64,000 nt of DNA from Minisyncoccota bacterium (GTDB lineage: Bacteria > Patescibacteriota > Minisyncoccia > Phycocordibacterales > XYD1-FULL-46-19): NCBI GenBank assembly GCA_040879645.1, contig JBBDJY010000016.1:11064-75063 (forward strand), given 5' to 3'. Numbering within the stretch: the first letter of the stretch is position 1; each line of letters opens with the position of its first letter. The translations under genes were made by a program, and so were the position numbers. Shown here in pieces: positions 107-54,807 of this stretch. The notes below the pieces were generated by a model, which saw nothing but the letters and a program-made list of their open reading frames with translations, was not told the DNA's origin and ran no database searches.

Positions 107-130
107 TTGTCAAACTTCAGAAGTTTGACA
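107..130. repeat. 24-bp perfect palindrome TTGTCAAACTTCAGAAGTTTGACA upstream of the first CDS; variant of the TTGTCAA...TTGACAA palindrome family
   Basis: Perfect inverted repeat read directly; shares outer arms with the palindromes at 2505, 40529 and 54581. Confidence 0.6.
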
Positions 131-2504: not shown

Positions 2505-2527
2505 TTGTCAAGGTGTCACCTTGACAA
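2505..2527. promoter_or_regulatory. 23-bp palindrome TTGTCAAGGTGTCACCTTGACAA, with partial copies at 2555-2572 and 2620-2630; candidate operator/regulatory repeat
   Basis: Perfect inverted repeat; same motif recurs at 40529, 48949, 52544 and 54581, always between a terminator and the next gene. Confidence 0.5.
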
Positions 2528-4950: not shown

Positions 4951-4955
4951 AATTA

Positions 4956-5134
4956 GTCGAGGTTGAACCTCGACCAATGTTTGTACCCCCGAAGCCAACG
5001 GCTTCGGGGGTTTTCTTTTTTCAAATCGAGATGGGCCGGTCTTTAAAGCTTTAGTCGAGGTTGAACCTCAATACCGAGGTTTAACCTCGTTATTGAACCT
5101 CGTTATTGAGTGTTGGTCGAGGTTGAACCTCGAC
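4956..5134. repeat. REP cluster: GTCGAGGTTGAACCTCGAC and ATACCGAGGTTTAACCTCGGTAT palindromes (at least four copies)
   Basis: Perfect and near-perfect 19-23-bp palindromes read directly; same family at 6969-7093, 13257-13322, 13711-13809, 34630-34648 and 35337-35398. Confidence 0.85.
4985..5020 (+). terminator. Rho-independent terminator (cccccgaagccaacggcttcggggg followed by T-run)
   Basis: GC-rich hairpin plus T-tract directly after the PASTA gene stop. Confidence 0.6.
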
Positions 5135-5262
5135 TAATGCTACGGCTGATTTAATTCCTTGCATATTTTTTATATTCGTGGTAGTAATGGTTAAATTATC
5201 CTTGGACCGTAAACGGCCGGGAAAAGGGCGAAATTAGAAATTTATCAATAAGGAGAATAATT

Positions 5263-6927: not shown

Positions 6928-6968
6928 CTAATGCCAGGCGGATCTTGGTGGCTTGCCTCCTGGAGTCA

Positions 6969-7093
6969 ATACCGAGGTTTAACCTCGGTATTGACGTTAT
7001 ATTTAGCCACGATAACGAGGTTAAACCTCGGTATTGAGTATTAGTCGAGGTTGAACCTCGACCTAGTCATTAATCGAGGTTAAACCTCAATCA
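6969..7093. repeat. REP cluster (four palindromes of the GAGGTT-AACCTC family)
   Basis: Direct reading; intergenic between murB and gatB. Confidence 0.85.
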
Positions 7094-7146
7094 TCACCTC
7101 AATCATCAGTGTCGGCGTAGTGAGAAAAGGGTGGGAGCGTGATATA

Positions 7147-13228: not shown

Positions 13229-13256
13229 ACTCGTAAAACCCGATCGATGAATCTCC

Positions 13257-13322
13257 ATACCGAGGTTAAACCTCGGTATTATGGCTTAAAATAACGCTTA
13301 TAACGAGGTTAAACCTCGGTAT
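13257..13322. repeat. REP doublet (two ATACCGAGGTTAAACCTCGGTAT palindromes separated by tatggcttaaaataacgcttata)
   Basis: Nearly identical about 66-bp block repeated at 13711-13777. Confidence 0.85.
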
Positions 13323-13443
13323 TTAGATTGTTAATTGGTGGTTAATCCCCACCTAGTATTGTTGCCACTTGATTTTTTAGATAATCGTTTTATGCTAAAA
13401 ACAGAAGAACTTTATTCTATTGTTGGGCAATGGAGGACGAGTG

Positions 13444-13665
13444 ATGTTTGAAGAAGAGAGGCAAGTCAACGGAGAGCGAGATTTGGCCGCTTGGAATCAG
13501 GAACAAATTGCCGAGATGCTGGGGGATGACAATCGTTATTTCGCCGGCCAGCGTTTCGGTCATAGTCCGACCAAGCAAGAAGCCGTCAGACATTATGTCG
13601 AATGTGGCGGACCGACAGATTTCGCCAGGCGAAATGCGAAGAATCCGCGTTTCTATCGGTCGTAA
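13444..13665 (+). CDS. Small hypothetical protein (73 aa)
   Basis: RBS GGAGGA 6 nt upstream of ATG 13444; strong terminator immediately downstream; bracketed by REP doublets. Confidence 0.5.
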   Translation: MFEEERQVNGERDLAAWNQEQIAEMLGDDNRYFAGQRFGHSPTKQEAVRHYVECGGPTDFARRNAKNPRFYRS

Positions 13666-13668
13666 CTC

Positions 13669-13700
13669 AAAAGGCAGGGGAGACTCCCCTGCCTTATTTT
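13669..13700 (+). terminator. Rho-independent terminator (aggcaggggagactcccctgcct + TTATTTTT)
   Basis: Perfect 9-bp stem plus T-run. Confidence 0.7.
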
Positions 13701-13710
13701 TGGTATTCTA

Positions 13711-13809
13711 ATACCGAGGTTAAACCTCGGTATTATGGCTTAAAACAACGCTTATACCGAGGTTAAACCTCGGTATTATCTTTTTTTTGGCCCGAGGTTT
13801 AACCTCGGG
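13711..13809. repeat. REP doublet plus a third variant palindrome (cccgaggtttaacctcggg)
   Basis: Direct reading. Confidence 0.85.
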
Positions 13810-13826
13810 CCAAGTCAAAAAAGGTT

Positions 13827-15012: not shown

Positions 15013-15879
15013 ATGACATATTTGGAAACAATTAAGCAAGCGGAAGCGGAGAAAAAAGCCATCGGACATTTTAATATTTCCAATATTGAAGGTTTCCACG
15101 CGGTGATTGAGTCAGCGCGAGGGCTTGATTTGCCGGTGATCATCGGCGTGTCCGAAGGAGAGAGAAAATTTATCGGCGTTAAACAAGTGAAGGCCTTGGT
15201 TGATAGCGCCAAAGCCGAAGGCCGGCCGGTGTGGCTTAATGCCGATCACACTTATTCTTTTGACGGCGTCAAAGAAGTGGTGGATGCCGGTTTTGATTCG
15301 GTTATCTTTGATGGCAGTAATTTGGAATTGGAAGAAAATATTAAAATTACCAAACAGTGCGTTGATTATGCCAAAGATAAAAATCCCGATATTTTGATTG
15401 AAGGCGAGATTGGCTATATCGGTACTTCGTCCAAGGTGCTGGAAGAAATTCCGGCCGAAGTGGTCGCCGCCGGCAAGGCGGCGGTCACGCCGGAGATTGC
15501 CAAACAGTATGTCGAGGCGACCGGTGTTGATTTATTGTCGCCGGCCGTCGGTAATATTCACGGGATGTTAAAGCATGAACATAATCCGAAATTAAAAATA
15601 GAGTTGATTAAAGAAATCAGAGCGGCGGCCGGTGTGCCCCTTGTTTTGCATGGTGGGTCGGGGATTACCGATGATGATTTTCGGGCGGCCATCGTCGCCG
15701 GTATTAGTCTGGTGCATATCAATACCGAGATTCGCGTCGCTTTCCAAAATGCTCTCAAGCAGACCTTGCAGGAAAATCCCGACGAAATTGCTCCCTATCG
15801 TTTGTTGGCGCCGGCGGTGTCGGCGATGGAAGCGGTTATTACCAAAAGACTTAAACTGTTTGCCGGTAAAAATGTTTGA
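15013..15879 (+). CDS. fba: Class II fructose/tagatose-bisphosphate aldolase
   Basis: GHFNISNIEG..LHGGSG class-II aldolase motifs. Confidence 0.85.
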   Translation: MTYLETIKQAEAEKKAIGHFNISNIEGFHAVIESARGLDLPVIIGVSEGERKFIGVKQVKALVDSAKAEGRPVWLNADHTYSFDGVKEVVDAGFDSVIFDGSNLELEENIKITKQCVDYAKDKNPDILIEGEIGYIGTSSKVLEEIPAEVVAAGKAAVTPEIAKQYVEATGVDLLSPAVGNIHGMLKHEHNPKLKIELIKEIRAAAGVPLVLHGGSGITDDDFRAAIVAGISLVHINTEIRVAFQNALKQTLQENPDEIAPYRLLAPAVSAMEAVITKRLKLFAGKNV

Positions 15880-17518
15880 CCTAACGGCAAAATTAAAAAC
15901 GACGATTAAGGGGGAAGTGGCTTCGGATGCCGAAACTCTTAAGCGTTACAGTCGGGATACCAGTTTGTTTGAAGTTAAGCCTCAAGCGGTAGTTTTTCCG
16001 GCCGACCGGGCCGACATTGAAAGCTTGGTCCGATTTGTTAATGAGCATAAGCCAGCCGAACCGTCTTTGTCGTTGACCGCCCGGTCGGCCGGCACCGACA
16101 TGACCGGTGGCCCGCTAAATGATTCGATTATTTTAAGTTTGACCGAACACTTAAATCGCGTCGATCGGGTTGATGAAGAAAATTTGGAAGCGGTGGTGGA
16201 GCCGGGCGTTTTTTACCGTGATTTTGAAGAGAAAACTTTGCCCAAGCATATTTCTCTGCCAACTTATCCGGCTTCCAAATCGATTGCCGCTTTGGGTGGA
16301 ATGATTGCCAATAATTCCGGTGGCGAAAAGACTTTGCGTTACGGCAAGACGGCCGATTATGTGAAGGAAATGGAAGTGGTATTGGCCGATGGCGAGTCTT
16401 ACACCCTGAAGAGCTTGTCACCTGATGAGTTGGAGGAGAAAAAGAAACAAACCGATTTTGAAGGTGAATTGTATCGCCGAACTCATGATTTGTTAGAAAA
16501 TAATTTTGATATTATCCAAAAAGCTCGGCCGGATGTATCCAAAAATTCGGCCGGTTATGCCTTGTGGCGGGTTTGGGATCGCCAACATTTTGATTTAACC
16601 CAGCTTTTTTGCGGGGCTCAAGGCACTCTCGGTATTATCACCAAAGCTAAATTGCGCTTGATTAAAGACAAACCCAAACGCCGATTGATTGCCTTATTCT
16701 TTAATAATTGGGACGAATTGCCGGCGGTGGTTAATGCTCTCCTGCCTCACGATCCGGAAGGGCTGGAAGCCTTTGATGATGAGACGCTTAAATTGGGTTT
16801 GCGTTTTATGCCGGAAATCGCCAAACGGGCCGGCCGGAATTTCTTCGCTTTTGCCTGGCAATTTTGGCCGGAAGTCCTAATCGGTATCAAAATGCTCGGA
16901 TTACCAAAGTTGATTGTTCTTGTCCAGTTGGCCGAGGATAGCGAACAGGCGATCGATATTAAAACGGCGGAGATAAAAAGAGCTTTGGCTGGTTTCCGGG
17001 TTCACTATCGGGTGTTGCTGACGGAAACCGAAGCCAATAAATATTGGGTCATGCGCCGACAAAGTTTCGCCCTATTGCGTGAGCATGTTAAAGGCAAAAA
17101 GACCGCCCCGTTTATTGAAGACTTTTGCGTCAAACCGGAAGTCATTCCCGAATTTTTACCTCAAGCCATTGCCATTTTGCGGGAACATGGCATCAAGGTA
17201 AATATTGCCGGTCACGCCGGCAATGGTAATTTTCACATTATTCCCTTAATGGATTTGCGCCGGCAAAGCGAGCGGGACAAAATTACGGTGGTGGCTGATA
17301 AGTTTTATGATTTAGTCGTTAAGTACAAGGGCTCAATTACCGCCGAGCATAACGACGGCATTATTCGCACCCCGTATCTGGAAAAGATGTACGGGACGGA
17401 GATTTATGATATTTTCCGTCAAGTCAAACAAATTTTTGATCCGCAAAACATTTTTAATCCCGGCAAAAAAATCGGCGGGGACATTGCCTATTTAAAAAGC
17501 CATATTGCTAAAGATTAA
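15872..17518 (+). CDS. FAD-linked oxidase (GlcD/D-lactate dehydrogenase-like FAD-binding PCMH family)
   Basis: ORF begins 15632 but overlaps fba; ATG 15872 overlaps the fba stop by 8 nt; FAD-binding motifs in translation. Confidence 0.75.
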   Translation: MFDLTAKLKTTIKGEVASDAETLKRYSRDTSLFEVKPQAVVFPADRADIESLVRFVNEHKPAEPSLSLTARSAGTDMTGGPLNDSIILSLTEHLNRVDRVDEENLEAVVEPGVFYRDFEEKTLPKHISLPTYPASKSIAALGGMIANNSGGEKTLRYGKTADYVKEMEVVLADGESYTLKSLSPDELEEKKKQTDFEGELYRRTHDLLENNFDIIQKARPDVSKNSAGYALWRVWDRQHFDLTQLFCGAQGTLGIITKAKLRLIKDKPKRRLIALFFNNWDELPAVVNALLPHDPEGLEAFDDETLKLGLRFMPEIAKRAGRNFFAFAWQFWPEVLIGIKMLGLPKLIVLVQLAEDSEQAIDIKTAEIKRALAGFRVHYRVLLTETEANKYWVMRRQSFALLREHVKGKKTAPFIEDFCVKPEVIPEFLPQAIAILREHGIKVNIAGHAGNGNFHIIPLMDLRRQSERDKITVVADKFYDLVVKYKGSITAEHNDGIIRTPYLEKMYGTEIYDIFRQVKQIFDPQNIFNPGKKIGGDIAYLKSHIAKD

Positions 17519-17520
17519 GA

Positions 17521-17546
17521 CAGCCCCGAAGGGCTGTCTTTGCAGT
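17521..17546 (+). terminator. Rho-independent terminator (gacagccccgaagggctgtc + TTT)
   Basis: Hairpin after the oxidase gene. Confidence 0.55.
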
Positions 17547-17921
17547 CGGTTGGACAGAATATGGAAACTGTCCTGCTCTAGTTATTACCCACCAATATCC
17601 AAGAGTCTTGTTCTTGATTGATATTGGTTTTGTGCGTGGGGTTCCTGTAAAGGAAGTCGTCTTTCGCTCAAGCACAATAAGAGCGATTGACCAAGCCGTT
17701 GCCGACAACAAGACTACGACAACGGCCATTGATTTAATTATATCTCACTCGCTGTCAATTTCAAGGGCTTTTATTAGACTTCTGGTTTTTTCATTTCCGG
17801 CCCCGAACCTCCGTCTTTGACCGGCACAAATACCACAAGCGATTTTAGAATGTTTTCTTTTTCGTTTGTAGTTCATTTAATAATTGTAAAAGAAAATGCC
17901 TACCGTTGCCAATAGTAAATG

Positions 17922-17946
17922 TTATCAAACACCGGGTGTTTGATAA
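17922..17946. repeat. Left flanking palindrome TTATCAAACACCGGGTGTTTGATAA of the RAYT at 17925-18596
   Basis: Perfect palindrome; near-identical copy at 18626-18650. Confidence 0.8.
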
Positions 17947-18596
17947 TCTTCTTTAGCGCCACTGGTTTCAACCCATTTTTTATAACTTTGGCCGGGGTTT
18001 GGCCCGTCCATTTGGTCCATGATTATTTTGGGTTTAAGTAATTCGCCCCAACGATTTTCATTGGTGTAGTCGCTAAAACTTGACCAACGATATTCTGTTT
18101 CTCGATTATTATAGTCAATCTCCCTTGCGTTTAAGTGGACGTAGGCCGAAGCATAAAGTAATTGCTCATTGTCTTTAATGTGAACAGCGCGAAAAGGTCC
18201 TTGAAAAAGGTGTCCAGATTGTTGATATCTGGTATTGAAATACTTGGTATAACCGTTAAGAATCTTTTGCATGTAGGTGGAAACTCCGTTATCCACATTT
18301 GATTGGACAATCAAATGAAAATGGTTCGGCATCAAACAAAAGGCGATCAATGTCACTAGACGATTTTCGATGAGGGTTTCAATGTCTTGATGGTTAAAGC
18401 CGAAATTGTTTTCTTTTATAAATTTTTTTGCATGCGATCCGATATTATTGATACTGCGGGCTGATTGTAAATGAAGAATATACAATAAAAATCTGGCACG
18501 ATCTAAGTCATCTTTAAAGATATCGCATTTAAGGTTTCCTCGGTTAACTAAGTGAAAATATTCACCGGCGACAAAAGGAGTTTTTCGATAAGTCAT
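17925..18596 (-). CDS. REP-associated tyrosine transposase (RAYT; IS200/IS605 TnpA-like HUH Y1 transposase)
   Basis: HUH motif NHFHLIVQ, C-terminal RWSSFSDY tyrosine region, N-terminal YHLVNRG motif. Confidence 0.8.
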   Translation of the reverse strand: MTYRKTPFVAGEYFHLVNRGNLKCDIFKDDLDRARFLLYILHLQSARSINNIGSHAKKFIKENNFGFNHQDIETLIENRLVTLIAFCLMPNHFHLIVQSNVDNGVSTYMQKILNGYTKYFNTRYQQSGHLFQGPFRAVHIKDNEQLLYASAYVHLNAREIDYNNRETEYRWSSFSDYTNENRWGELLKPKIIMDQMDGPNPGQSYKKWVETSGAKEDYQTPGV

Positions 18597-18625
18597 GATA
18601 TTTCAATCATACCATACAATCCCGA

Positions 18626-18650
18626 TTATCAAACACCCGGTGTTTGATAA
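18626..18650. repeat. Right flanking palindrome TTATCAAACACCCGGTGTTTGATAA of the RAYT
   Basis: Direct reading. Confidence 0.8.
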
Positions 18651-18742
18651 CAAGTTTATAAACATATGAGACTCTGTAATTAAGAATTCATATGTGTCAA
18701 AATCATTGACTTTTGGTTGTTTTTGGCTATACTGCATTTGTT

Positions 18743-24003: not shown

Positions 24004-24076
24004 GCCAGCATAGCTCAGTTGGTAGAGCAACGGTTTTGTAAACCGTAGGTCGTGGGTTCGAATCCCTCTGCTGGCT
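24004..24076 (+). tRNA. tRNA-Thr (anticodon TGT)
   Basis: Cloverleaf read by eye: acceptor GCCAGCA/TGCTGGC, D-arm GCTC..GAGC, anticodon stem ACGGT/ACCGT with loop TTTGTAA, T-arm GTGGGTTCGAATCCC; no encoded CCA. Confidence 0.8.
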
Positions 24077-24530
24077 CACAAACAAAGAGCCGAAAGCGGA
24101 TGCTTTCGGCGATTATTGTTTGTGCCAGTAGAGGGATGAGAACGGCGGAGCGCGCGAAGCCGACCGAGTGGTAACGAGGTCGAGCGCGAGCCGTGTCCCG
24201 CGGCACTTCATATTTTGTGAGTGGAATGAAACAAAATATGTTAGTGACCGTCAGGACGAATCCCCAGCTTCCTCACAAACAAAGAGCCGAAAGCGGATGC
24301 TTTCGGCGATTATTGTTTGTGCCAGTAGAGGGATGAGAACGGCGGAGCGCGCGAAGCCGACCGAGTGGTAACGAGGTCGAGCGCGAGCCGTGTCCCGCGG
24401 CACTTCATATTTTGTGAGTGGAATGAAACAAAATATGTTAGTGACCGTCAGGACGAATCCCCAGCTTCCTCACAAACAAAGAGCCCTCGGCGGATGCTTT
24501 CGGCGATTATTGTTTGCCCACGGACTGGAA
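24077..24530 (+). repeat. Tandem direct repeat: two complete 197-bp units plus a partial third immediately 3' of tRNA-Thr; each unit ends in a degenerate copy of the tRNA 3' end (pseudo-att)
   Basis: Units start at 24077, 24274 and 24471 (period 197); the ORFs at 24168..24371 and 24365..24568 are artefacts of this repeat. Confidence 0.85.
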
Positions 24531-25607
24531 AAAGTCAGAATCTGTTACTGGTCTCGATTCTATCATAAAATCATTCCATTTCATGCTAAAATGAGTAGAT
24601 GAAGAAAAATAATATTATCATCTATCAAGCTAAATCAGGTGCTCTTGAGTTCAAGAGTGATTTGAAAGAAGATACTATTTGGGCATCACAAATCCAAATA
24701 GCCGAGGCTTTTAAGGTAAATGTTCGTACAGTAAACGAACATATAATAAACATTTACAAAACAAAAGAACTATTTAAGAAAGGAACTATCCGGAAATTCC
24801 GGATAGTTCAAAAAGAAGGAAACAGAGAAATTTCTCGTGATATCCAGCACTATAACTTAGACATTATTTTGTCAGTTGGATATAGAGTTAACTCAAAAAA
24901 AGCAACTAAGTTTAGGCAATGGGCCACCAAAACCCTTAAAGACCATTTAGTTAAAGGATATACGATAAATCGAAAAAGAATCGATAAAAACTATCTTGAG
25001 TTTTTAAGATCAGTCGAAGAAGTTAAAAAACTTCTTCCCCAAGGGAATACCCTGTCAACAAAAGATACCTTGGAGCTAATCAAATTCTTTGCCGGCACTT
25101 GGCTTTCTCTGGAGGCCTACGATAAATCAACATTTTCTAAACAGGGCCTAACTAAAAAACAAGTCAAAATCACAGCCGATGAATTGGAGAACGCTATTGT
25201 CGATTTACGGCATAATCTAATCTCACAAAAAGAAACGACGGACATCTTTGCTCAAGAAAAATCAACCGGTTCCATTGCTGGCATTGTGGGGAATGTATTC
25301 CAAGGTTTTAATGGTAAAAACCTCTATCCAACCGTAGAAGAAAAGGCCGCCCATCTTTTATATTTTATAGTCAAAAACCACCCCTTTATTGATGGAAACA
25401 AGCGAAGTGGAGCTTTTGCTTTTGTTTGGTTTTTGAACAAAGCCGGTATTTTAAATAGAGATAGTTTTACTCCCGAAGCATTAACGGCTTTAACAATTTT
25501 AGTGGCTGAGAGTAATCCGAGTGATAAAGAAAAAGTTGTTGGTTTGATTTTGAATTTATTAAGGTGATTTAACTTTTTATTCAATCCCAAATGATTGCCC
25601 CATTCTG
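24521..25607 (+). mobile_element. tRNA-Thr-associated islet bounded by about 45-bp direct repeats (24471-24520 and 25608-25650, both with the ccctcggcggatgctttcggc variant), carrying only a RhuM-Fic/Doc gene
   Basis: Direct repeats read directly; AT-rich cargo; no integrase present. Confidence 0.55.
24599..25567 (+). CDS. RhuM-family virulence-like protein fused to a C-terminal Fic/Doc domain (HPFIDGNKRSG motif)
   Basis: N-terminal RhuM-like pattern (IIYQ..NLDIILSVGYRVNSKKATKFRQWAT); C-terminal Fic/Doc motif HxFx(D)GNKR. Confidence 0.7.
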   Translation: MKKNNIIIYQAKSGALEFKSDLKEDTIWASQIQIAEAFKVNVRTVNEHIINIYKTKELFKKGTIRKFRIVQKEGNREISRDIQHYNLDIILSVGYRVNSKKATKFRQWATKTLKDHLVKGYTINRKRIDKNYLEFLRSVEEVKKLLPQGNTLSTKDTLELIKFFAGTWLSLEAYDKSTFSKQGLTKKQVKITADELENAIVDLRHNLISQKETTDIFAQEKSTGSIAGIVGNVFQGFNGKNLYPTVEEKAAHLLYFIVKNHPFIDGNKRSGAFAFVWFLNKAGILNRDSFTPEALTALTILVAESNPSDKEKVVGLILNLLR

Positions 25608-25654
25608 AATCTTCAGCTTCCTCACAAACAAAAGCCCTCGGCGGATGCTTTCGG

Positions 25655-26035
25655 CTACTTTTTATTTAAGTCAATCAGTTTTTTCAAATCCAGATCAATG
25701 TCCCCGGTTGAATCCAAATGCCGAGGGAAAAGGCTGTCATTAACAATATCATCACTACCCTGTGGTAAAACAAATACATTGCCACTTTCTGGATATTTAC
25801 CAAAAACAATTTTTAATCCCTCTGCTTGAAACCGAGTAATGAGTTCGTCTATCGGGGTTCCGTATCCGGGCAGTTCTTCTTGTTCCGCCTTTATTATTTC
25901 ATATGAATTTGGGTCGATACCGGGAAAAGGAAAATTTTCCTGATTTTCCGCCATTAGTTTTTCGACAAGTAAAATATATTCTTGTTTTCGTCGCTCTTTT
26001 TCCTGTTCAGGTGATGGGTTGGGAAATGATTCCAT
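25655..26035 (-). CDS. Hypothetical protein (126 aa)
   Basis: ORF only; adjacent to the islet boundary repeat. Confidence 0.4.
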   Translation of the reverse strand: MESFPNPSPEQEKERRKQEYILLVEKLMAENQENFPFPGIDPNSYEIIKAEQEELPGYGTPIDELITRFQAEGLKIVFGKYPESGNVFVLPQGSDDIVNDSLFPRHLDSTGDIDLDLKKLIDLNKK

Positions 26036-34583: not shown

Positions 34584-34629
34584 AGGCCAATAATAGCAAG
34601 ATTTTTTGCTTTAGCCAAAGGGTGTTCTT

Positions 34630-34648
34630 AGTCGAGGTTGAACCTCGA
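34630..34648. repeat. REP palindrome GTCGAGGTTGAACCTCGAC upstream of the RAYT
   Basis: Direct reading. Confidence 0.85.
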
Positions 34649-34676
34649 CTAAGAAGTTATTATAATTTAACATAAC

Positions 34677-35423
34677 ATGAGCCGAAATTTTTCTTTCTCT
34701 ATTGATGAGTTCTATCACCTGTATAATCGTGGTAACGATAAGAGGGATATTTTTCTTGATTATCTAGATAGGGAGAGATTTTTAAAATTACTCTATCTTT
34801 GTAATGGTAAAAATGAATTTCATATTCAAAAAATTCTTGACGAGGAACTTTTTTATTTTAATCGAGGTGAGTCTATCGTTGATATTGGAGCTTATTGTTT
34901 GATGGATAATCATTATCATTTATTGGTTAAAGAAAAGATGGAAAATGGCATCAGTCTTTTTATGCAACGATTATCAACGGCATATTCTATGTATTTTAAT
35001 AAAAAACACGATAGAACAGGCGCTTTGTTTGCCGGTCGTTTTAAGGCCAAACATCTTGATGACGATGACTATTTAAAGTATATTTTTGCTTATATTCATT
35101 TAAATCCGATTAAAATAGTTGATGATTTTAGTTGGAAATCCGGAATAGTAAATGATCTGGAAAAGATTAAAAAACATTTGAGCGATTATCGTTATTCGAG
35201 TTACCAAGATTATCTGGAGATCAATCGAGCAGAAACAAGAATCCTGAATAAAGAATCCTTTCCGGAATATTTTGATGATGTTGAAGATTTTAAAAATTAT
35301 CTAGATGATTGGATCAATTACCGAAGAGAAGAATTAGTCGAGGTTGAACCTCGACCAACAAAGGGTCATTCAATCAACAGTCGAGGTTCAACCTCGACTA
35401 GAGTTCTTTCGCTGATTCGATAA
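34677..35423 (+). CDS. REP-associated tyrosine transposase (RAYT), second copy; its 3' end runs into a REP doublet
   Basis: HUH motif NHYHLLVKE; YRYSSYQDY tyrosine region; N-terminal YHLYNRG. Confidence 0.8.
35337..35398. repeat. REP doublet (GTCGAGGTTGAACCTCGAC ... GTCGAGGTTCAACCTCGAC) overlapping the RAYT 3' end and containing the dnaE stop codon
   Basis: Direct reading. Confidence 0.85.
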
Positions 35424-40526: not shown

Positions 40527-40528
40527 TT

Positions 40529-40551
40529 TTGTCAAGGTGACACCTTGACAA
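40529..40551. promoter_or_regulatory. 23-bp palindrome TTGTCAAGGTGACACCTTGACAA
   Basis: Perfect copy of the motif family, between rnhB and rpmF. Confidence 0.5.
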
Positions 40552-40654
40552 AAGATTGGTTATTTTTAACGGTCGAGATGTCAATCCAATGCTTTCCTTG
40601 AAGTGTCCCTAAAAAGTATTGCCAATTATTCGTTTTTCGGCTATAGTACTCTTT

Positions 40655-48264: not shown

Positions 48265-48909
48265 ATGACCACTTTTCACCTCATCAGTATTTTCCCCAAG
48301 AGCTTCACTTCCTACATTGAATGCTCGATCATCGCTCGGGCGATTAAGGCAAAAAAGATTGCCGTCAAATTTTATGATCCGCGAGATTATACCGCCGACA
48401 AGCATCGTTCGGTTGACGACCGACCTTATGGCGGGGGGCCGGGAATGGTGATGTCGGCCGAGCCGATTATTTTGGCGGCTCGGGCGGCTCGTTGGCGCCG
48501 ACCAAAAGCCAAAGTTTATTTACTGGCAACGACCGGCAAACAATTTACCAATCAATTAGCCGGTCGCTTGGCTAAGAAAAATGAAGATATCATCATTATT
48601 TGCGGCCGGTATGAAGGCATTGATGCTCGAGTGAAGAAAATTTTGCGGGCCGAATATTTAACTATCGGTCCCTATGTGTTGACCGGCGGCGAATTGCCGG
48701 CTTTGGTGGTGATTGATGCTATCGCTCGACAAATTCCCGGTGTCTTGGGTAAAACCGAATCGCTTGAAGAGAGTCGGCCGGCCGGGCGAGAAGTTTATAC
48801 TCGACCGGAAGTGATGGTGATTGACGGTAAAAATTATCGCGTACCGAAAGTGTTATTATCCGGCGATCACAAAAAAATCACCGACTGGCGACAAAAGCGC
48901 CATCGGTAA
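48265..48909 (+). CDS. trmD: tRNA (guanine37-N1)-methyltransferase
   Basis: MTTFHLISIFPKSF..YGGGPGMVM motifs; ORF from 48139. Confidence 0.9.
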   Translation: MTTFHLISIFPKSFTSYIECSIIARAIKAKKIAVKFYDPRDYTADKHRSVDDRPYGGGPGMVMSAEPIILAARAARWRRPKAKVYLLATTGKQFTNQLAGRLAKKNEDIIIICGRYEGIDARVKKILRAEYLTIGPYVLTGGELPALVVIDAIARQIPGVLGKTESLEESRPAGREVYTRPEVMVIDGKNYRVPKVLLSGDHKKITDWRQKRHR

Positions 48910-48916
48910 AACCACA

Positions 48917-48964
48917 GGCTTTTTGTTTGTTCGATTAAGGCCGGAATTTTGTCAAGGTGTCACC
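48917..48964. promoter_or_regulatory. Conserved intergenic module copy 1 (GGCTTTTTGTTTGT..GGAATTTTGTCAAGGTGTCACC; half palindrome)
   Basis: About 80% identical to the modules at 52513-52560 and 54550-54603. Confidence 0.6.
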
Positions 48965-49107
48965 GCTGATAGCCAACGCGCCGATGCGTTTTGGCGCGCG
49001 GACGGAAGTCTTCGGCCTAATTCATGCCAGCAGGGATATTCACCGGCGCGATTTTCTAGATAATTATCTCTTGGCGCGAAATTTAAGTAATGGTATTATA
49101 AATAATA

Positions 49108-51726: not shown

Positions 51727-51830
51727 CCACTAAATTAATTATCGGGAACTGGAAGATGAATCCGGCGACCCTGAAGGAGGCCAAGGCGATTCTGGCCAAC
51801 ATCAAGAAGGAGAAGAGAAATGAAAATGTT
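51723..51830 (+). pseudogene. tpiA: 5' remnant of a triose-phosphate isomerase gene (MTTKLIIGNWKMNPATLKEAKAILANIKKEK...), truncated after about 30 codons
   Basis: Highly characteristic TIM N-terminus IIGNWKMN; reading frame diverges into non-TIM sequence and stops; ATG overlaps the upstream stop (ATGA). Confidence 0.5.
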
Positions 51831-52455
51831 AGTGACCCTGGTCTTGGTGTCGATGTTCGTGTTCGGTGGTGCTTTTGCCGACTTCTTGGTCAATAGTCAG
51901 GGGGAAGTGAAGGAGAATGAAGGATGGCGTCCGTTGACCGAGTTCGAGCAGGAGGCGGTCAACAACCCCGGTACGGAAGTGCCGATCATCGACAGTCAGG
52001 TCAAACTCGACTATCGTCGCGATGGTTTCTGGCATCTGTTTCCCATCCGCGCTTACGAGCAGGTCGTGGTTTACGGTGGTGGCTAATTACAAACCAAAGA
52101 TCAAGCCGGAGAGGTGGTGGGGGAACGGCAGATTGCTTGTCATATCATCTTGGGCTTGATTGCTATCGGTCTGATGATGGTGGGTAATCTTTTGTATTTT
52201 AAGTATGGGGGAGACGAGAAAGCCTACGTCTTTACCGTGCCCGCCTTCCTTTTCGCCATCTTTGCTGCCGCCTTTGCCACTATCTTTATCGTTTTCAAGG
52301 CTGGAGATCTTGCTAATTTCCTTGCTATGGTTTTTGCCTTTGCTCTCGCCCTCGCCCTCTGCAATCTGACGGTCAATTTTAAAAACCGAATACTCTATTA
52401 TGGTCTTTCGGTGACCTTCTACGTCCTGATGGGAGTTGCCTTGTTTACTTGGTAG
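51820..52455 (+). pseudogene. Secreted-domain plus 4-TM membrane protein interrupted by a single in-frame TAA (52084-52086); paralog of the intact gene at 53869-54501
   Basis: ORFs 51820..52086 and 52114..52455 are in the same frame; alignment with the paralog continues across the stop (GGG*LQTKDQ vs AGRLQIRYQ). Confidence 0.7.
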
Positions 52456-52486
52456 TTTGGCTCTGATGACATCGAAAGCTTTTTGG

Positions 52487-52560
52487 CCCGTGATTTCCGC
52501 AAGGAAATCACGGGCTTTTTGTTTGTCCGGTTAAGGTTGGAATTTGTCAAGGTGTCACCA
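52487..52560. promoter_or_regulatory. Conserved intergenic module copy 2: terminator hairpin (cccgtgatttcc..ggaaatcacggg) + GGCTTTTTGTTTGT.. + half palindrome TTGTCAAGGTGTCACC
   Basis: Direct reading. Confidence 0.6.
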
Positions 52561-52642
52561 CTGACGGCCAAAGTCGTTTAAATAGAGTAAATTTTACAAA
52601 ATAATTTGCTAAATCTTACAAATCAGCTATAATGGTCATATT

Positions 52643-53868: not shown

Positions 53869-54501
53869 ATGAAAAAGTTAGTGATTTTTGCCCTGACTTT
53901 GATGTTCGCCTGTGGCGAAGCCCAGGCCACCGAATTCTCGATCAATGATCAAGGAGAAGTGAGGCAAGAGGAAGAAGGGTGGCGTCCGTTGACCGAGCTG
54001 GAGCAGGAAGCGGTCAACAACCCCGGTACGGAAGTGCCAATGACTGCTGTGGGGATGATTGAGTATCGTCGAGACAGTCTCTGGTATTTTTCTTCGATTG
54101 TAAACTACCAACAAGTCTTGATCTATGAGGCCGGCCGGTTGCAGATTAGGTATCAGACCGGAACGGTCGAGACCAGGCATTTCGGGAGGCATTTGGTGTT
54201 GGCTTTGGTCGCCATCTTTATGGTGATGGCAGGAAACGTGTGGAGAATAAAAAAGGAAGAAGATTTTCACATCTTCCCCATCCTCGGCGCTATCTTCGTC
54301 ACCTTCTCTACCTTTCTTCTCGCCTCAATTGACGCTGGCACACCGAGCGGTCTTCTCTGCCTTTTCGCCTTCGCCGCAATCGTCGTTTCTTTTTTTAGCG
54401 TCGTTCTCGCTGGAGATGAGAAAACGAACAGAGCCTTTTACTGGTCGGCTTCGGGGGTTTTCTACTTCATGCTGGTAATGGTCATTTTTGCCGTCTGGTA
54501 A
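53869..54501 (+). CDS. Secreted-domain plus 4-TM membrane protein (intact paralog of 51820-52455)
   Basis: Signal peptide; shared 23-aa stretch EGWRPLTExEQEAVNNPGTEVP with an about 70-nt near-identical patch; C-terminal TM bundle ending in W. Confidence 0.65.
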   Translation: MKKLVIFALTLMFACGEAQATEFSINDQGEVRQEEEGWRPLTELEQEAVNNPGTEVPMTAVGMIEYRRDSLWYFSSIVNYQQVLIYEAGRLQIRYQTGTVETRHFGRHLVLALVAIFMVMAGNVWRIKKEEDFHIFPILGAIFVTFSTFLLASIDAGTPSGLLCLFAFAAIVVSFFSVVLAGDEKTNRAFYWSASGVFYFMLVMVIFAVW

Positions 54502-54523: not shown

Positions 54524-54603
54524 CCCCGTGATTTCCTTTTGGAAACCACGGGCTTTTTGTTTGTCTGTTTGAGCCGGAATTTGTCAAGGTGACACCTTGA
54601 CAA
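54524..54603. promoter_or_regulatory. Conserved intergenic module copy 3: terminator hairpin + GGCTTTTTGTTTGT.. + full palindrome TTGTCAAGGTGACACCTTGACAA (54581-54603)
   Basis: Direct reading. Confidence 0.6.
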
Positions 54604-54807
54604 ATTGGATGGGGTGGACGAGTGCAAAAATTTGACAAATATTCGTCCTTACGCTACACTGGTTCCACAACGGCAAGATTGAGTTATGGTTGGGCCGGTT
54701 TAAGTATCTTGCTAAATCTCTCCATTTGATTTGCGACACGCCTTCAATCTCAATTGAAGGGGACAATTTTTGTTTTTATTATCGGCGATTTTAATAATTC
54801 AATTATT

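Follow-up and report, generated by a model that had tools for sequence, protein, structure and literature searches.

This work concerns a 23-bp perfect palindrome, TTGTCAAGGTGWCACCTTGACAA, that recurs in a 64,000-nt stretch (hereafter, the window) of contig JBBDJY010000016.1 of a Minisyncoccota bacterium (Patescibacteriota). We consider it, with a probability of about 0.8, a repetitive extragenic palindromic (REP)-type element, that is, a miniature mobile hairpin of a family associated with a REP-associated tyrosine transposase (RAYT), a domesticated IS200-like HUH tyrosine transposase. This reading is carried by the anatomy of the repeat, the covariation of its stem, its insertion relative to homologous genes, a reciprocal association of REPs with RAYTs and a transposase fold like that of TnpA-REP. 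An earlier, sequence-only reading had proposed either an operator for a dimeric regulator or a mobile or recombination module analogous to attC. In the second proposal the mobile part stood, but not the analogy to attC, the associated enzyme being a RAYT of the HUH type and not an integron integrase, and the anatomy being that of a REP; the first fared worse, as detailed below.

The palindrome belongs to family A (formula TTGTCAAGGTG-W-CACCTTGACAA, W being A or T), which is represented in the window by three exact, one degenerate and three partial copies, hence seven copies or remnants (Table 1). The three full copies already listed by the sequence-only reading are exact matches, with 0.00 expected from shuffled sequences, and in a census of palindromes their perfect dyads reach further, with 15-bp arms in the case of 2501-2531. 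What had been called a half-site at 2555-2572 is indeed a copy, but a nearly full, degenerate one (3 mismatches to TTGTCAAGGTGWCACCTTGACAA, 0 expected from shuffles), which forms a doublet with 2505-2527, with 23 bp between the two. The 11-mer half CACCTTGACAA was matched 10 times with at most one mismatch in the window, versus 0.79 expected. The matches beyond the full copies were 48949-48959 and 52544-52554, both on the minus strand and corresponding to partial copies noted before, and one with a single mismatch at 2618-2628. The last lies where a half-site near 2620 had been claimed; the match is real, but taken alone it could be chance or a remnant. The perfect palindromes are 23-31 bp long, and the copies have DNA hairpin energies of -10.6 to -13.8 kcal/mol (z -5 to -7). 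The doublets (A, 2505 and 2551; C, 13257-13323 and 13711-13777) are predicted to fold as two separate hairpins, and their orientation is undefined because each REP unit is symmetric.

Two RAYT-like genes, winE and winB, lie in the window, with hairpins of families E and B, respectively, at their ends. At five loci of other genomes (loci are denoted by L numbers), tblastn with winE found RAYT homologues between paired family A palindromes 700-800 bp apart (L048, L017, L036, L045, L057); at L006 a homologue is likewise bracketed, one family A copy being a one-mismatch variant. All six loci had originally been chosen by the palindrome alone. The layout is constant, with one hairpin 20-85 bp upstream of the RAYT start and the other at or over the stop codon. 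In fact, the 3' hairpin supplies the RAYT stop at L045 1030-1050 and L057 103-123 (...VKVTP and stop) and in winE at 17922-17946 (...YQTPGV and stop). Orthologues of winE, 64-73% identical, carry the family E palindrome on both sides, the same palindrome flanks the orthologues in L058 and L061, and in a homologue of 51% identity it is replaced by the variant TGTTAAACACC-W-GGTGTTTAACA. The neighbourhood of these orthologues is kept (ClpB-protease-Sod-RAYT-aminotransferase-DUF4446-IF2), with L058, L059 and L061 syntenic.

The reverse test was run on 68 evaluable metagenomic loci chosen by RAYT similarity only. In 57 of them an identical stretch of at least 12 nt was common to the upstream and the downstream flank, and these stretches were nearly all stem-AGG-N5-CCT-stem hairpins whose lower stem varies freely. 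The cognate hairpin was also found inside the RAYT open reading frame (ORF), about 160 nt from its start (near residue 55) and with the frame intact, in L073, L078, L091 and L141; L061 (10498-10526), L062 (10177-10199) and L060 (3171-3193) likewise carry it inside the RAYT ORF.

The two window proteins score 37.8 and 40.8 bits against Pfam PF01797 (Y1_Tnp; cut-off 23). They are 34-38% identical to each other, and winB is 47-49% identical to the family-A-associated RAYTs of L048 and L045. The HUH motif N-H-h-H (NHFH) and the motif Y-x-x-x-N (YIHLNP) are invariant in nine aligned proteins. The sole NCBIfam match was NF047646, REP_Tyr_transpos (46.5 bits for winE, 40-47 bits for the RAYTs). A profile of the RAYT family had as its best PDB match E. 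coli TnpA-REP (4ER8), with the HUH motif and the tyrosine aligned; a single-sequence PDB search with one RAYT gave nothing useful. For an AlphaFold (AF2) model of winE (mean predicted local distance difference test, pLDDT, 92.8) the top Foldseek match was again 4ER8_A (E 5.4e-6, template-modelling (TM) score 0.71, root-mean-square deviation 2.7), with ISDra2 and IS608 next in the ranking at E 1e-3 or worse. The modelled fold of winE is closer to TnpA-REP than to the IS200/IS605 transposases. The family has at least 1,296 members, labelled 'transposase' or unnamed, all from Patescibacteria wherever the source organism was named.

A FAD oxidase gene and winE stand between fba and rplY in the window (15632-18700) and are absent at the syntenic place in L062 (3235-3614). 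There the RAYT sits after tsf instead, so the position of the RAYT is not fixed among close relatives.

This change of position is one of the observations that an autonomous IS200/IS605-type insertion sequence (IS) would share, namely a transposase with two palindromes, the solitary palindromes being solo ends or footprints. The superfamily is the same (Pfam Y1_Tnp, fold matches to IS608 and ISDra2) and the unit of about 740-800 bp is IS200-sized. We nevertheless consider this reading very improbable: the window genes are paralogues of 34-38% identity with different palindromes and not copies of one IS, the same symmetric hairpin stands on both flanks instead of a left and a right end of different kinds, there are more solitary hairpins than genes, and the closest fold and the sole NCBIfam match are TnpA-REP rather than TnpA-IS200. 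Orthologues of 64-73% identity in one neighbourhood across genomes fit vertical inheritance. The sequence-only reading had held that it would fall if the motif proved part of a known IS terminal repeat, and the outcome comes close to that, being RAYT/REP rather than an IS end. We also rejected a miniature inverted-repeat transposable element made of two abutted IS terminal inverted repeats: separated half-sites were rare in 475 kb of loci, and the flanks of the copies are inverted and not direct repeats, that is, without a target-site duplication.

Family A is one of several in the window. The census found 32 perfect palindromes whose arms measure 9 bp or more, versus 0-3 in shuffles, mostly odd-centred and sorting into families (Table 1); among them, the related palindrome previously noticed near 107 proved to be perfect at 108-130. 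When families A, B and C are compared, both sides have changed in 7 of the 12 stem pairs, with 90% of the cells paired, a result reached by 0 of 500 shuffles. We counted covariation on these three families only, MAFFT having shifted the register when D and E were added. Since the stems changed on both sides with pairing kept, what is preserved is the hairpin or dyad and not one sequence. A scan of the window for stem-AGG-N5-CCT-stem gave 14 matches (0-1 in shuffles), all of family A, B or C.

We then considered the 21-mer core, TGTCAAGGTGNCACCTTGACA, in one genome per species for 185,579 species. It was found at 57 loci with 63 sites in 24 metagenome-assembled genomes (MAGs), in Patescibacteria only. 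The carriers are Saccharibacteria, Kaiser-, Vogel- and Nomurabacteria with 'Paceibacterota' (Parcubacteria group) and Gottesmanbacteria (Microgenomates group), with 1-6 loci and up to 7 sites per MAG. There were zero exact copies on viral or phage contigs and therefore no sign of a phage vector. A literal sequence search of the literature did not find the 15-mer core or the 21-mer in print. An artefact of library or assembly, considered in view of the copies near contig ends and N-runs, was rejected: the 21-mer is confined to Patescibacteria, its MAGs come from many separate studies, and it recurs at identical positions of orthologous genes.

In a flank profile of 64 copies the foot of the hairpin showed neither GT[AG]G nor CGTC as a tag, and the only regularity was a symmetric A at -1 (73%). 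In 15 of the 64 the palindrome runs on for at least 4 bp into unrelated flanks (for example, cccccagcca-[21-mer]-tggctggggg in L017). These extensions measure 4-12 bp and differ in sequence from copy to copy (L017 4080-4120, L018, L021, L024, L030, L054 and others); they could each have arisen by insertion into the middle of a hairpin that was already there, or by template switching that perfected the palindrome outwards. The centre base is G or C in all the Gottesmanbacteria copies (L004, L012, L015, L016, L034, L039, L050) and A or T in all the other lineages, a pattern consistent with amplification within that lineage. Copies at contig ends or beside N-runs (L014, L023, L033, L036, L037) suggest that the repeat breaks or confuses MAG assemblies.

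Twelve of the 63 sites lie inside long ORFs of unrelated housekeeping genes (Table 1). Two further ORF matches were discarded, one being a spurious antisense frame over an intergenic copy (L029) and the other lying upstream of the likely start (L046). All 12 copies are read in one frame, TGT CAA GGT GWC ACC TTG ACA, encoding CQG(D/V)TLT. The second frame has TGA, and so has the third if the centre base is A, hence the frame bias is explained in part, but not wholly. Comparison with homologues covered 5 of the 12 copies, in four genes, and each copy was an insertion: of exactly 7 residues in TsaD versus E. coli TsaD, of 9-12 residues in Dus versus homologues, of 19 residues in TrmD versus the window's own TrmD, and of about 6 residues in the GlcD-like gene versus the orthologous FAD oxidase of the window (15632-17518), which is therefore an empty site. 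Homologous sites both occupied and empty, the criterion that we adopted for mobility, were thus found in these genes and in the case of a segment absent from L062 (see below). In the three Dus genes all seven codons are unchanged at one position, the flanking codons differing.

Table 1. Hairpins, modules and transposase genes of the window, with the loci of other genomes in which the 21-mer lies inside housekeeping genes.
Feature	Position or locus	Strand	Remarks
REP family A, perfect copy	2501-2531 (core 2505-2527)		Centre T; 21 bp past stop of ORF 301-2484; hairpin -12.7 kcal/mol, z -6.8
REP family A, degenerate copy	2548-2576 (core 2551-2573)		Centre A; 3 mismatches
Lone right half-site GACCTTGACAA	2618-2628	+	1 mismatch; weak
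REP family A, perfect copy	40527-40553 (core 40529-40551)		3 bp past RNase HII stop; ~70 bp ahead of rpmF promoter-like site
REP family A, perfect copy	54578-54606 (core 54581-54603)		Behind terminator-like hairpin; 26 bp ahead of rpoB TTGACA-17-TACACT site
Extended module after trmD	48909-48976	+	Terminator-stem 3' half, T-run, spacer, truncated family A copy TTGTCAAGGTGTCACC then GCTGATAGCCAA
Terminator hairpin (52485-52516) and extended module	52485-52572	+	Truncated family A copy 52544-52559; same 12-nt continuation ACTGACGGCCAA
Third extended module	54543-54603	+	Full palindrome at its end
Best sigma70-like sites	40619-40647, 49071-49099, 52606-52633, 54632-54660
winE, RAYT-like Y1/HUH transposase, 223 aa	17925-18596	-	Pfam Y1_Tnp, E 2.3e-9
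winB, second RAYT-like gene	34677-35423	+	tblastn with winE; Pfam Y1_Tnp
REP family E copy TTATCAAACACC-G-GGTGTTTGATAA	17922-17946		Overlaps winE 3' end
REP family E copy, centre C	18626-18650		30 bp upstream of winE start
REP family B copy TTCTTAGTCGAGGTTGAACCTCGACTAAGAA	34625-34655		Directly upstream of winB
Two REP family B copies	35334-35401		winB 3' end
Family B, TAGTCGAGGTT-G-AACCTCGACTA			16 copies together with C; common core CGAGGTT-N-AACCTCG
Family C, ATACCGAGGTT-W-AACCTCGGTAT			Counted together with B
Family D, TTGTCAAACTTC-A-GAAGTTTGACA			1 copy
Family E, TTATCAAACACC-S-GGTGTTTGATAA			2 copies
Single perfect palindrome D, TGTCAAACTTC-A-GAAGTTTGACA	108-130		Outer arm common to families A and E
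Family B and C cluster	4953-5137 (4953, 5051, 5070, 5113)		Behind PASTA gene
Family C and B cluster	6965-7094 (6968, 7011, 7041, 7070)		Between murB and gatB
Family C doublet, 67 nt	13256-13323
Family C doublet and variant TGGCCCGAGGTTTAACCTCGGGCCA	13710-13812		Doublet 97% identical to 13257-13323
In-gene copies, Dus	L025, L028, L037		One identical position in all three
In-gene copies, GlcD-like FAD oxidase	L013, L032		Identical position in both
In-gene copies, TsaD	L026, L051		Differing positions
In-gene copy, topoisomerase I (TopA)	L041
In-gene copy, RNase R	L052
In-gene copy, TrmD	L035
In-gene copy, MnmA	L027
In-gene copy, PurL-like	L056

In the window all the family A copies are intergenic, as had been claimed, 3-89 bp past the upstream stop codon, and the gene names given before (PASTA, L32, HTH+SocA_Panacea, TrmD) check out. 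The upstream stop is nearer to the copies than the following start codon is, which matches the published placement of REPs between co-directional ORFs near the upstream 3' end (Di Nocera et al., PMC3733652). The nearest sigma70-like site lies downstream of the copies at a varying distance of about 26-110 bp, and the best such sites (Table 1) are placed 40-90 bp further downstream. The hexamer TTGACA of the palindrome has no -10 at the correct spacing in the window copies, a point of the sequence-only reading that inspection of promoter sites confirmed; the hexamers are a by-product of the stem sequence and not a promoter. A promoter was rejected for this spacing and for the better promoter-like sites downstream, and a terminator because the hairpin lacks a T-run and some copies stand behind a full terminator.

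On the operator reading, a dimeric regulator bound at the palindrome would co-regulate the genes downstream, namely those for PASTA, the pilin-like protein and the Panacea antitoxin, together with rpmF and rpoB. The perfect dyad with its 11-bp half-sites would suit such a regulator, every window copy is upstream of a gene start, and ahead of winB a good -35/-10 pair (TTGAAC-17-TATAAT) coincides in part with a family B copy. We consider an operator very improbable, since the copies keep to the upstream stop and not to a fixed distance from the promoter-like sites, the downstream genes are functionally unrelated and make no coherent regulon, and elsewhere the 21-mer lies in frame in 12 housekeeping genes and brackets transposase genes. 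Moreover, at least five co-varying families are mixed in clusters within 64 kb, and as many paralogous regulators would therefore be required. As for winB, the centre (TTGAAC) of the family B hairpin directly ahead of it is 17 nt upstream of TATAAT (34628-34676), and binding to this hairpin could autoregulate the gene.

The palindrome could also be selected by the host as a structural or RNA element (mRNA 3'-end stabiliser, terminator helper, chromosome-organising or DNA-uptake site), the link with the transposase being secondary. Its 21 bases are invariant in 24 MAGs over three Patescibacteria groupings and in no other phylum, the seven Dus codons (7/7) are unchanged in three genomes despite differing flanks, the copies are placed just behind genes and terminators, and co-option of REPs is known from other bacteria (PMC6006769). 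We consider such an element very improbable as an explanation by itself, although it is compatible with a REP origin and not exclusive of it. Family A hairpins are not followed by a U-tract and several stand behind a complete terminator, their density is far under that of known uptake sequences, and in all the genes compared (TsaD, Dus, TrmD, GlcD-like) the copy is an insertion and not a convergence by point mutations. At gathering thresholds Rfam gave tRNA-Thr as its sole match in the window and none for the palindrome. A parS-like or DNA-uptake sequence, suggested by the conservation between phyla and by the copies within genes, was rejected on the same insertions and on the link with RAYTs.

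For the REP-type element that we prefer, the following mechanism is proposed by analogy with the biochemistry of E. coli TnpA-REP and IS608 (PMC6006769). The RAYT would bind the hairpin in single-stranded DNA, for example on the lagging-strand template, cut at its foot via a 5'-phosphotyrosine intermediate and rejoin it at a new place. Copies would survive where they are harmless, either right behind terminators or as in-frame segments of surface loops. The AGG-N5-CCT top of the hairpin is probably the recognition determinant, and the lower stem would drift by compensatory change. In-frame intragenic REPs, including some inside tnpAREP genes, are on record (PMC6006769, PMC3733652).

Several points weigh against this reading. 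Classical REPs are imperfect, tagged and abundant, whereas here the hairpin is perfectly symmetric, lacks the unpaired GT[AG]G or CGTC tag at its foot and has few exact copies per MAG. The RAYTs do not reach the NF047646 equivalog cut-off of 80, and their scores therefore place them in a distant subfamily. There is no family-A-bracketed RAYT within the 64 kb of the window, where winE carries E and winB, the nearest relative of the family-A-associated RAYTs, carries B, so the link of family A rests on other genomes; the window copies may be served by a RAYT elsewhere in the genome, cross-mobilised or orphaned. Mobility is deduced from occupied and empty sites, and the insertions at one position (three Dus, two GlcD-like) might each go back to a single old event that has been conserved, instead of to repeated ones. 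Finally, the 21-mer is identical across candidate phyla though the family-A-associated RAYTs are 36-62% identical and form two clades, each mixing Saccharibacteria and Parcubacteria, unlike the usual species-specific REPs. An identical 21-mer with such diverged RAYTs suggests an extra, strong constraint, horizontal transfer, or both.

A stronger form of the REP reading, which we hold to be unlikely yet worth stating, is that family A and its RAYT now serve a function of the host cell in these bacteria, which are streamlined and host-dependent, or that the hairpin is trafficked horizontally between candidate phyla at a rate undescribed for REPs. The invariance of the 21 bases includes all the synonymous positions of the in-gene copies (Saccharibacteria, Parcubacteria-group and Microgenomates-group). 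Possible roles are the processing of single-stranded DNA, a role linked to replication, or a deliberately retained insert of peptide or RNA structure in essential tRNA-modification and topology genes.

As for the longer module that the sequence-only reading had described, its three copies (48909-48976, 52505-52572 and 54543-54603) do align, from the 3' half of a terminator stem, via GGCTTTTTGTTTG, up to the palindrome. In the truncated copies 48949 and 52544 the break falls on one and the same base, with the next 12 nt in common, hence a module of about 68 nt with a broken hairpin was itself copied. Two of the three modules stand behind paralogous genes (51820-52455 and 53869-54501), and there the 3' module (84% identical) is more conserved than the coding body. 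The gene 51820-52455, paralogue of the membrane-protein gene 53869-54501, has one in-frame stop at 52084-52086, where the paralogue has Arg; it is either a pseudogene or a case of read-through.

A segment of about 600 bp (13229-13826) between the convergent transketolase and pfkB genes contains a short ORF (13448-13665), which has a terminator hairpin of its own (13671-13695). The segment is bracketed by two 67-nt REP-C doublets of 97% identity and is missing from the syntenic relative L062, where the transketolase and pfkB genes overlap. Its appearance is that of a gene cassette which the REP doublets carry or frame.

Two further observations concern other repeats. A 27-bp perfect palindrome, GAACTATCCGGAA-A-TTCCGGATAGTTC, at 24783-24809 lies inside the RhuM/Fic ORF and is not of the AGG-N5-CCT type. 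Behind a tRNA-Thr(TGT), a 197-bp unit starting with the tRNA 3' end is repeated in tandem 2.3 times (24004-24516), and a further partial copy of it stands after the RhuM/Fic gene (24599-25567), at 25607-25662; these repeats look like an integrated element at tRNA-Thr with a duplicated attachment sequence.

The mapping of REP/RAYT systems has centred on Proteobacteria, Cyanobacteria and Bacteroidetes, and in the literature searched we found no published link between them and Patescibacteria. Several RAYT-hairpin families mean that Patescibacteria genomes of about 1 Mb are not free of persistent mobile DNA. For annotation, 'transposase' genes bracketed by stem-AGG-N5-CCT-stem hairpins can be named RAYTs, and the odd 7-residue CQG(D/V)TLT inserts in TsaD, TrmD, Dus and topoisomerase I are accounted for. 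The identity of the hairpin across phyla offers a handle on the service of RAYTs to the host and on gene flow among Patescibacteria.

Among the known systems, the E. coli REP/BIME (bacterial interspersed mosaic element) with TnpA-REP (RAYT, YafM; PDB 4ER8), or 'REPtron', is alike in its dispersed intergenic hairpins near 3' gene ends, in an HUH-Y1 gene, probably single-copy, that stands between the REPs of its own family, and in the fold of the protein, 4ER8 being the closest to the prediction for winE, with the HUH and Y..NP motifs aligned. It is unlike in its REPs, which are imperfect hairpins with an unpaired 5' GTAG guide and occur in hundreds of copies, whereas here they are perfect, odd-centred, tag-less and with few exact copies; the window protein is, moreover, about 60 residues longer and under the NCBIfam equivalog cut-off. 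The Pseudomonas REPIN-RAYT system (Bertels and Rainey; PMC3116915, PMC5581495) likewise has several REP families per genome, each with its own RAYT, and REP doublets (here 2505/2551 and 13257-13323); the RAYT neighbourhood is kept here in three relatives. REPINs are mostly vertically inherited and lineage-specific (PMC3116915, PMC5581495), whereas here one 21-mer is common to candidate phyla.

The TnpA-Y1 subclass 2.4 (Bertels group 4), with 'double-foot' REPs in Cyanobacteria, Bacteroidetes and others (PMC6006769), shares with our family the NH[IFV]H motif, symmetric REPs and REPs in frame inside the tnpAREP gene (here L061, L062, L073, L078, L091 and L141). It differs in its GT[AG]G and C[TC]AC feet, in its Y motif (YIxNNP there, YIHLNP here) and in the place of the insertions, which is between HUH and Y there and about 55 residues from the N-terminus, before HUH, here.

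Integron attC sites, too, are palindromes, from imperfect to perfect, which stand at gene boundaries and function as hairpins of single-stranded DNA, but they vary in sequence, form cassette arrays and are served by the tyrosine recombinase IntI and not by an HUH-type enzyme; among the 40 window ORFs scanned, which are part of those present, no integrase domain was found. RPE-1 elements, among the Rickettsia palindromic elements (RPE), are about 100-150 bp long, far longer than the bare 21-bp hairpin (7 codons) found here. Intragenic REPs and RPE (PMC3733652) are otherwise alike, being palindromic inserts in frame in conserved genes, tolerated as extra peptide. For the CGTC-type REPs (PMC3733652), there is no known transposase, whereas here a RAYT family is associated. 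REP/RAYT is a known kind of element, which in this case is tag-less and fully symmetric, occurs as 7-codon inserts in essential genes and is unusually conserved across lineages.

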